DNA of 64,000 bases from Raja brachyura (taxonomy: Eukaryota): NCBI GenBank assembly GCA_963514005.1, contig OY740792.1:16306001-16370000 (forward strand), given 5' to 3'. The position numbers and the translations under genes are program-made. The first letter of the stretch is position 1, and every line of letters begins with the position of its first letter. Under the pieces are notes generated by a model that was not told the origin of the DNA, did not search any database, and saw only the letters and a program-made list of their open reading frames with translations. Below are positions 54,026 through 55,093 of the stretch, one piece after another.

Positions 54026-54990
54026 GTCAGTCCATCTTGAAGGTTTTTATTTTTCATTGAACGGCCTTGTTCACTGTAATACTTTAGATTAATAAGATTG
54101 CAGACTGGCTTGACGTTACCAAGGGAATCATTTGATATATGTAATACAAAAAGAGCTAAATAATTTATTTAGCGGAAATAATGTGTTCTGATTAAAAGGG
54201 CAAGTGCTGATAGATAATTGTGGTATTGTTAAATGACAGGTTATTTTTGTTTTGGATCAGTTATGGCTGCTACGGATATATTAAAAAATATATATACTTA
54301 AGATCATTCAGCTGAAGAATGATTTAAAGATTTTTATTACGATTTATTTTGTTTGTGACTTGAGGGTTCACTCTTAAATTATTCTCACTTCTGTCAGATT
54401 ATGATTTGAACAGGAAGAAACTCATGGAAGAGCACAACAGTTGTCTAGGGCCTGCATGAATATCTGTGTTTATCAGTTGATCTCCATCAGCATAGAGCCA
54501 CTGCGATGCAAAGAATCTATGTTCATATTAATTCTGCTTTTTGAGTGCTGGTTCTCACTTAAGTATTAAGCATTAACGATTAGGATCTACCAGTTGGTGG
54601 TTCAGCAGGTAGAAAAGTATCTCTTTCAAATTTCAAACGTGTCTCAAAGCTGACCTCTAAAATAATTCTGAGCAGCGTGTATATTTCATAGCATTTTCTA
54701 TTTTTTGTACTTAAAGATATGTAAATTAATTTGTAGATTACTACATTTTCTTAAATTATCTCCAAAATTCAATCAGATTTTAACAGTAATGTTTTTAAAA
54801 AAAAATGTAATTTTACTCTTCTCACTGATCTCTTTATCGCTAGTTGCATTCATCTTTACTCAATTTACAAACAAAACGGTGTGGGTCCCAATAGGTTTAA
54901 ATTTTGTGTTCAATGAAAATTAAAGTTAGTGTTACTTAATAGGTTTTTCTACAAGATCTTTTGGTAATTTTGAAAAATTTGTATTTTCAG

Positions 54991-55093
54991 GCAAAACTGT
55001 AATGGTACCAAGTCTGGATGCATTTGGTCGTGACCGTGCTTTATATCAAGAAAATGCCAAACAACGAAGGATTGCAGAGAGGGAGGCCCGTAG
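54991..55093 (+). CDS. PAXBP1: PAXBP1 exon 9
   Basis: Acceptor attttcag|, donor TAG|gtatga. Encodes KTVMVPSLDAFGRDRALYQENAKQRRIAEREARR. 103 nt, phase 1-2. Confidence 0.95.

Follow-up and report, generated by a model that had tools for sequence, protein, structure and literature searches.

What is a second 5' splice site doing 17 nt behind the donor of exon 8 in PAXBP1, and why has it been kept? The question was posed by a 64,000-nt stretch of Raja brachyura DNA (the window; contig OY740792.1, positions 16,306,001 to 16,370,000 of the forward strand), on the plus strand of which coding exons 1-14 of the gene were modelled (31677..62458); the gene extends past the modelled part. The 14-exon model translates into 801 residues, of which 780 are identical to Leucoraja erinacea protein P0135. 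P0135 in turn matched PAXBP1 (PDB 8ro2_PX) with E=0 and 1242.9 bits, against 436.2 bits for GCFC2 (9s2e_GC). On the strength of this full-length similarity, which is greater to PAXBP1 than to GCFC2, the gene is assigned as the PAXBP1 orthologue. Our reading, to which we give a probability of about 0.8, is that two weak, conserved donors compete at exon 8, the proximal one (D1) serving full-length PAXBP1 and the distal one (D2) likely feeding NMD and likely capping PAXBP1 supply.

Exon 8 (53902..54025, plus strand, 124 nt) ends at the productive donor D1 (54025|54026), whose dinucleotide occupies 54026-54027. The initial annotation had placed a second donor 17 nt farther on, at 54042|54043, and the sequence bore these coordinates out. 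The D2 dinucleotide lies at 54043-54044, and its use adds a 17-nt extension (54026..54042, plus strand), by which exon 8 grows to 141 nt (124+17) and the frame is shifted. Exon 9 (54991..55093, plus strand, 103 nt) follows behind the acceptor at 54990|54991. In the D2 frame, a premature stop is reached at 55000..55002 (plus strand), 91 nt 5' of the exon 9/10 junction and with more junctions downstream, exactly as had been claimed. The stop lies 91, 207, 407, 555, 677, and 754 nt upstream of the later modelled junctions; the first distance exceeds the 50-55 nt of the NMD rule, and five more modelled junctions come after it. The D2 open reading frame of the window comprises 555 aa, including 8 new residues, and the GCFC domain is lost in D2 products. 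Use of D1 would thus yield full-length PAXBP1, and use of D2 would lead via frameshift and premature stop to an mRNA that is likely degraded by NMD. Retention of intron 8 in the window likewise runs into a premature stop (557 aa). A donor-like motif 5-30 nt downstream was found at 2 of 13 PAXBP1 donors, the chance expectation being ~0.09 per donor. Such a motif alone is common, and the case for D2 therefore rests on conservation.

The switch itself was already on record. According to the accessible text of Mudge et al. 2011 (PMC3176834), GCFC1 (= PAXBP1) undergoes a shift of a 141-bp exon that is "linked to downstream PTC", is supported by human, mouse, and zebrafish data, including zebrafish ESTs, and lies within a near-invariant 31-bp block that 43 of 46 vertebrate genomes share without a difference. 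The event in the window agrees with it in gene, exon size (124+17 = 141), shift of the 3' end, and downstream PTC, and is its orthologue. Ottesen et al. 2023 (PMC10325915) also came upon PAXBP1 exon 8 and, in the passages available, described two donors, both weak and separated by 17 nt, that were used to a similar extent by RT-PCR in control human fibroblasts, and a shift toward the upstream donor D1 upon treatment with branaplam. These passages treat the exon as a branaplam off-target and discuss neither NMD nor conservation. Use of D2 outside the skate, which the initial annotation had suggested for human, is documented for human, mouse, and zebrafish in the available parts of these two sources (PMC3176834; human RT-PCR, PMC10325915). 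It has thus been known since 2011 that the event occurs, that it is linked to NMD, and that it is conserved from human to fish; the discovery value is therefore modest. The accessible text of Mudge et al. (PMC3176834) names no cartilaginous fish and proposes neither structure nor controller. What is added here is a cartilaginous-fish copy, at the level of sequence, conservation reaching ~46 nt into the intron, and the placement of both donors in one predicted hairpin.

Translated beyond D1 into the intron, the window agreed in 10 of 11 residues with P0217, a read-through protein of tetrapod type; it is at this peptide level only that the window was compared with the published 31-bp block. The 46-genome alignment of Mudge et al. 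reportedly held no shark. The nine codons past the donor consensus scored 8, and the best score among the other 28,349 intronic positions was 5. D2's exon-side and intron-side codons were unchanged. The conserved tail 3' of D2 (54043..54071, plus strand) matches tetrapod- and teleost-type read-throughs. In its distal part (54057-54071), with the frame shifted by one base, 5 of 5 residues agreed with a teleost-type consensus built from 37 read-throughs, of which 9 match it at 5 of 5, 12 at 4, and 16 at 3 or fewer; elsewhere in the introns (28,361 positions), a score of 5 was never reached. Conservation of the post-donor stretch is thus beyond chance, and it extends farther into the intron than the published block. 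Because 54057-54071 is intronic under both donors, the constraint there must act on nucleotides. The start of intron 7 (43210-43240) served as a control: a read-through of ~5 residues is common to other vertebrates at this place, a hint of modest conservation, but it is absent from the window.

The initial annotation had held that the second donor is out of frame and conserved with human, and that it has been kept since the chondrichthyan-osteichthyan split. The first statement is upheld by the match to P0217 and by the existence of a human isoform 4 formed through D2. As for the second, the element is intact in the window, and at the sequence level it appears to have been kept since the first jawed vertebrates; an element intact in cartilaginous fish would predate the split between sharks and bony fish. 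Among 136 further representatives, the D2 extension was found in 4, all of vertebrate type, and at the protein level, to which this comparison is confined, more divergent exon-8 homologues lacked it.

Database proteins were then grouped by how they leave exon 8. The survey covered 339 proteins (341 minus two window translations), 155 of which contained the exon-8 motif; many come from related species, and the counts do not represent independent events. D1 was used in 81, D2 splicing was seen in 31, and 41 read through into the intron; the remaining 2 are other gene-model forms that run through the same six extension residues, leaving none unassigned. The first search was biased, its query containing these six residues, but non-D1 matches still carried them when the query lacked them. 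Named D2 products are human isoform 4 and mouse isoform 2, which answers the isoform check proposed in the initial annotation, as well as proteins of orangutan, titi monkey, horseshoe bat, rat, and killifish. The human tail given there was wrong by one residue: IKL is the end in mouse isoform 2, rat, and bat, and human isoform 4 (P0057) ends TKL.

These records raise the possibility that D2 yields a functional short protein (~510-555 aa, without the GCFC domain), spared from decay and in competition with full-length PAXBP1. The cataloguing of human isoform 4 and mouse isoform 2 is in favor of it, and so is the finding that the stop falls 3 residues past the extension in 23 of the 31 D2 products and in the window. 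The high steady-state level of the D2 form in human cells, as given in the available part of PMC10325915, points the same way. However, the tail comprises 3 residues in 23 proteins, 8 in 3, and 27 in 5, and the end of the peptide therefore varies. In addition, the constraint runs on into untranslated intron, at least five further junctions lie downstream of the D2 stop, and the event was annotated as PTC-linked in the accessible text of PMC3176834. We consider a functional short protein quite improbable. Human model P0058, with a different end after exon 9, would also fit a short product; a further truncated human model, P0060, ends after exon 7, and the gene can therefore arrive at a short product in more than one way. 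Open reading frames of 413-414 aa from the first Met of exon 9 occur in a skate cluster (P0136, P0137, P0140, P0142) and in a loach cluster (P0106-P0113). They recur in assemblies and were set aside as a sign of an out-of-frame upstream part, a contig break, perhaps where splice forms branch, being equally possible.

Cartilaginous fish contributed 41 exon-8 proteins of shark, ray, and chimaera type (43 Y-type proteins minus 2 from coelacanth). Similarity searches, cluster listings, and an HMMER scan revealed a D2 product in 0 of the 41. NMD isoforms often have no protein record, and the count is for this reason weak as counter-evidence. It agrees with a different proposal, namely that the block was kept for another reason, be it support of D1, control of intron 8 retention, or a function at the DNA level, and that cartilaginous fish make little use of D2. 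Also in line with it are the rank of D1 as the weakest donor of the gene, the frequency of read-through forms (41), and the premature stop met upon retention. Read-through proteins may, however, stem from contigs of DNA or of unspliced RNA. Mammals and teleosts are documented to use D2, and the codons on both sides of D2 are unchanged in the window, which makes this proposal very improbable in our estimation. We favor the reading with two competing donors, under which D2 is probably used in skates as well and its product is probably degraded.

Both donors are poor. By the predicted U1 duplex, a crude estimate that leaves out pseudouridine, D1 was the weakest of the 14 donors (-1.2 kcal/mol) and D2 the second weakest (-4.1 kcal/mol). 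D1 has no G at -1; on the intron side, it matches at +4, +5, and +6 and not at +3, where it lacks a purine. The -2/-1 exon-side consensus of D2 is complete, and there is no match at +3/+4/+5. In terms of class scores, D2 reached 2/2 on the exon side and 0/3 on the intron side, the sole such donor of the 14, and D1 reached 1/2 and 2/3. The pair echoes both classes of 5' splice site, exon-side and intron-side, laid out in the accessible text of PMC11732430. D2 is a clean exon-side site, whereas D1 leans toward the intron side without the +3 purine.

Such a pair might gauge the general machinery that distinguishes splice-site classes (U6 m6A/METTL16, SNRNP27K, LUC7 paralogues, U4/U6) rather than PAXBP1. 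D1 would lean on intron-side and D2 on exon-side pairing, and only the controller would differ, the NMD outcome being the same. The class scores are in line with this explanation, and opposite-class pairs, together with genotypes that shift them, are described in the available text of Parker et al. (PMC11732430). At the gene level, in the part of PMC8078730 that could be consulted, PAXBP1 mRNA fell on LUC7L knockdown (logFC -0.42, FDR 0.038), but it also fell on LUC7L3 knockdown (-0.52, FDR 0.0075), for which the opposite was expected, and LUC7L2 knockdown was without effect (+0.07). The idea that the donor pair senses splice-site class gets no support from the gene-level LUC7 data in this part of PMC8078730, the changes for LUC7L and LUC7L3 having the same sign. 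Furthermore, the searchable supplements of the papers on METTL16 and the LUC7 classes (PMC11347140, PMC11842720) contain no PAXBP1 entry, and no response of the exon 8 junctions to perturbation of the classes was found. Opposite-class pairs are common, moreover, and D1 lacks the +3 purine. Control by the class machinery is therefore regarded as rather unlikely.

Folding of the exon-intron boundary predicted a hairpin of 11 pairs with one bulged base (54020) and a 9-nt loop (54015..54046, plus strand). Its 5' arm contains the exon side of D1, its loop the intron side of D1, and its 3' arm D2. In each of the four donor-centred geometries, z was lower at donor 8 (-2.9, -4.1, -4.9, and -2.1) than at any other of the 13 donors, the folding windows having been picked after the inverted repeat had been noticed. 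The value depends on the window, since z was weaker (-0.7 to -1.7) in three others. Equal stability was found for 82 of 2417 gene-body 36-mers. The bulged base 54020 is the middle base of a His codon that is replaced by Leu in teleost-type proteins; it is the only place at which this change costs no pair, a single observation that does not amount to covariation. A second small hairpin is predicted over the conserved downstream motif (54058..54073, plus strand). Its 5' arm can instead form 8 pairs with the end of exon 8, at a predicted -6.3 kcal/mol versus -7.9 kcal/mol for the motif's own hairpin. An Rfam search of 30000-53990, a range that stops 5' of the donor element, gave no match. As predicted, the first hairpin would expose the intron side of D1 in its loop and bury D2, so that the split between the donors would be set by U1 engagement together with opening of the stem.

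Which factor might adjust this split? PAXBP1, its paralogue GCFC2, TFIP11, and DHX15 act in spliceosome termination, and PAXBP1/GCFC2 are counted among putative quality-control factors on aberrant 5' splice sites, as the available texts of PMC13736545, PMC11958768, and PMC13332222 report. The initial annotation had described PAXBP1 as a relative of spliceosome-disassembly factors; the link stands, but PAXBP1 is more than a relative, being itself a partner of TFIP11. In the accessible text of Mudge et al. (PMC3176834), GCFC1 was seen as a DNA-binding transcription regulator and thus as an exception among the splicing factors with AS-NMD, which include SR proteins, RBM39, SF1, SON, and LUC7L. 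With PAXBP1 now a spliceosome termination factor, the exception of 2011 is removed and the gene fits the splicing-factor pattern. It shares with those genes a conserved frame-breaking event, a conserved block, and a splicing factor as host, and unusual conservation of the non-coding part, by which AS-NMD genes are recognized, was found at exon 8. It differs in that a donor is shifted rather than a poison cassette included, and in that PAXBP1 is a late termination and quality-control factor and not a sequence-specific RNA-binding regulator.

Other splicing factors offer a parallel, and no donor of the gene is poorer than D1; on these grounds, we favor as the most likely controller, tentatively and at somewhat less than even odds, the TFIP11-PAXBP1/GCFC2-DHX15 module acting in negative feedback. 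When abundant, this module would discard more of the spliceosomes assembled on the weaker D1. A more specific version, in which a structured element of ~55 nt has been retained from the first jawed vertebrates onward and the discard module sets PAXBP1 output through it, is distinctly unlikely in our view. Such an element would enclose the two donors in a single hairpin, a competing pairing lying immediately downstream; more PAXBP1-TFIP11-DHX15 activity would then cause the weak productive D1 to be rejected more often and the transcript to be lost to NMD. Simple decay is at odds with the roughly equal levels of D2 and D1 mRNA in untreated human fibroblasts (available part of PMC10325915), which mean that D2 is dominant before decay sets in or that decay does not run to completion. 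Searches of the open-access literature turned up neither NMD-inhibition nor PAXBP1/TFIP11-knockdown data for the exon 8 junction, and searches of open-access full texts found no paper on PAXBP1 autoregulation, on structure at the exon 8 donors, or on a cartilaginous-fish copy. The accessible part of bioRxiv 10.1101/344507 names PAXBP1 only as an inconsistent responder, and that of PMC8091538 lists only another PAXBP1 junction. The shift of the ratio toward the productive donor by branaplam in human cells implies that the switch is tunable, and PAXBP1 has been associated with a developmental delay accompanied by hypotonia (as referenced in the available text of PMC10325915). If the version with the structured element is true, it would constitute a feedback loop run by spliceosome discard and not by an RNA-binding regulator, and PAXBP1 exon 8 would readily lend itself as an endogenous reporter for spliceosome quality control.

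Two minor features of the gene were also recorded. At the exon 2 donor, a second donor-like site lies 18 nt downstream, in frame (36486-36504). Intronic open reading frame fragments at ~50500-51760 and 56750-57080 are presumably remnants of LINE reverse transcriptases.
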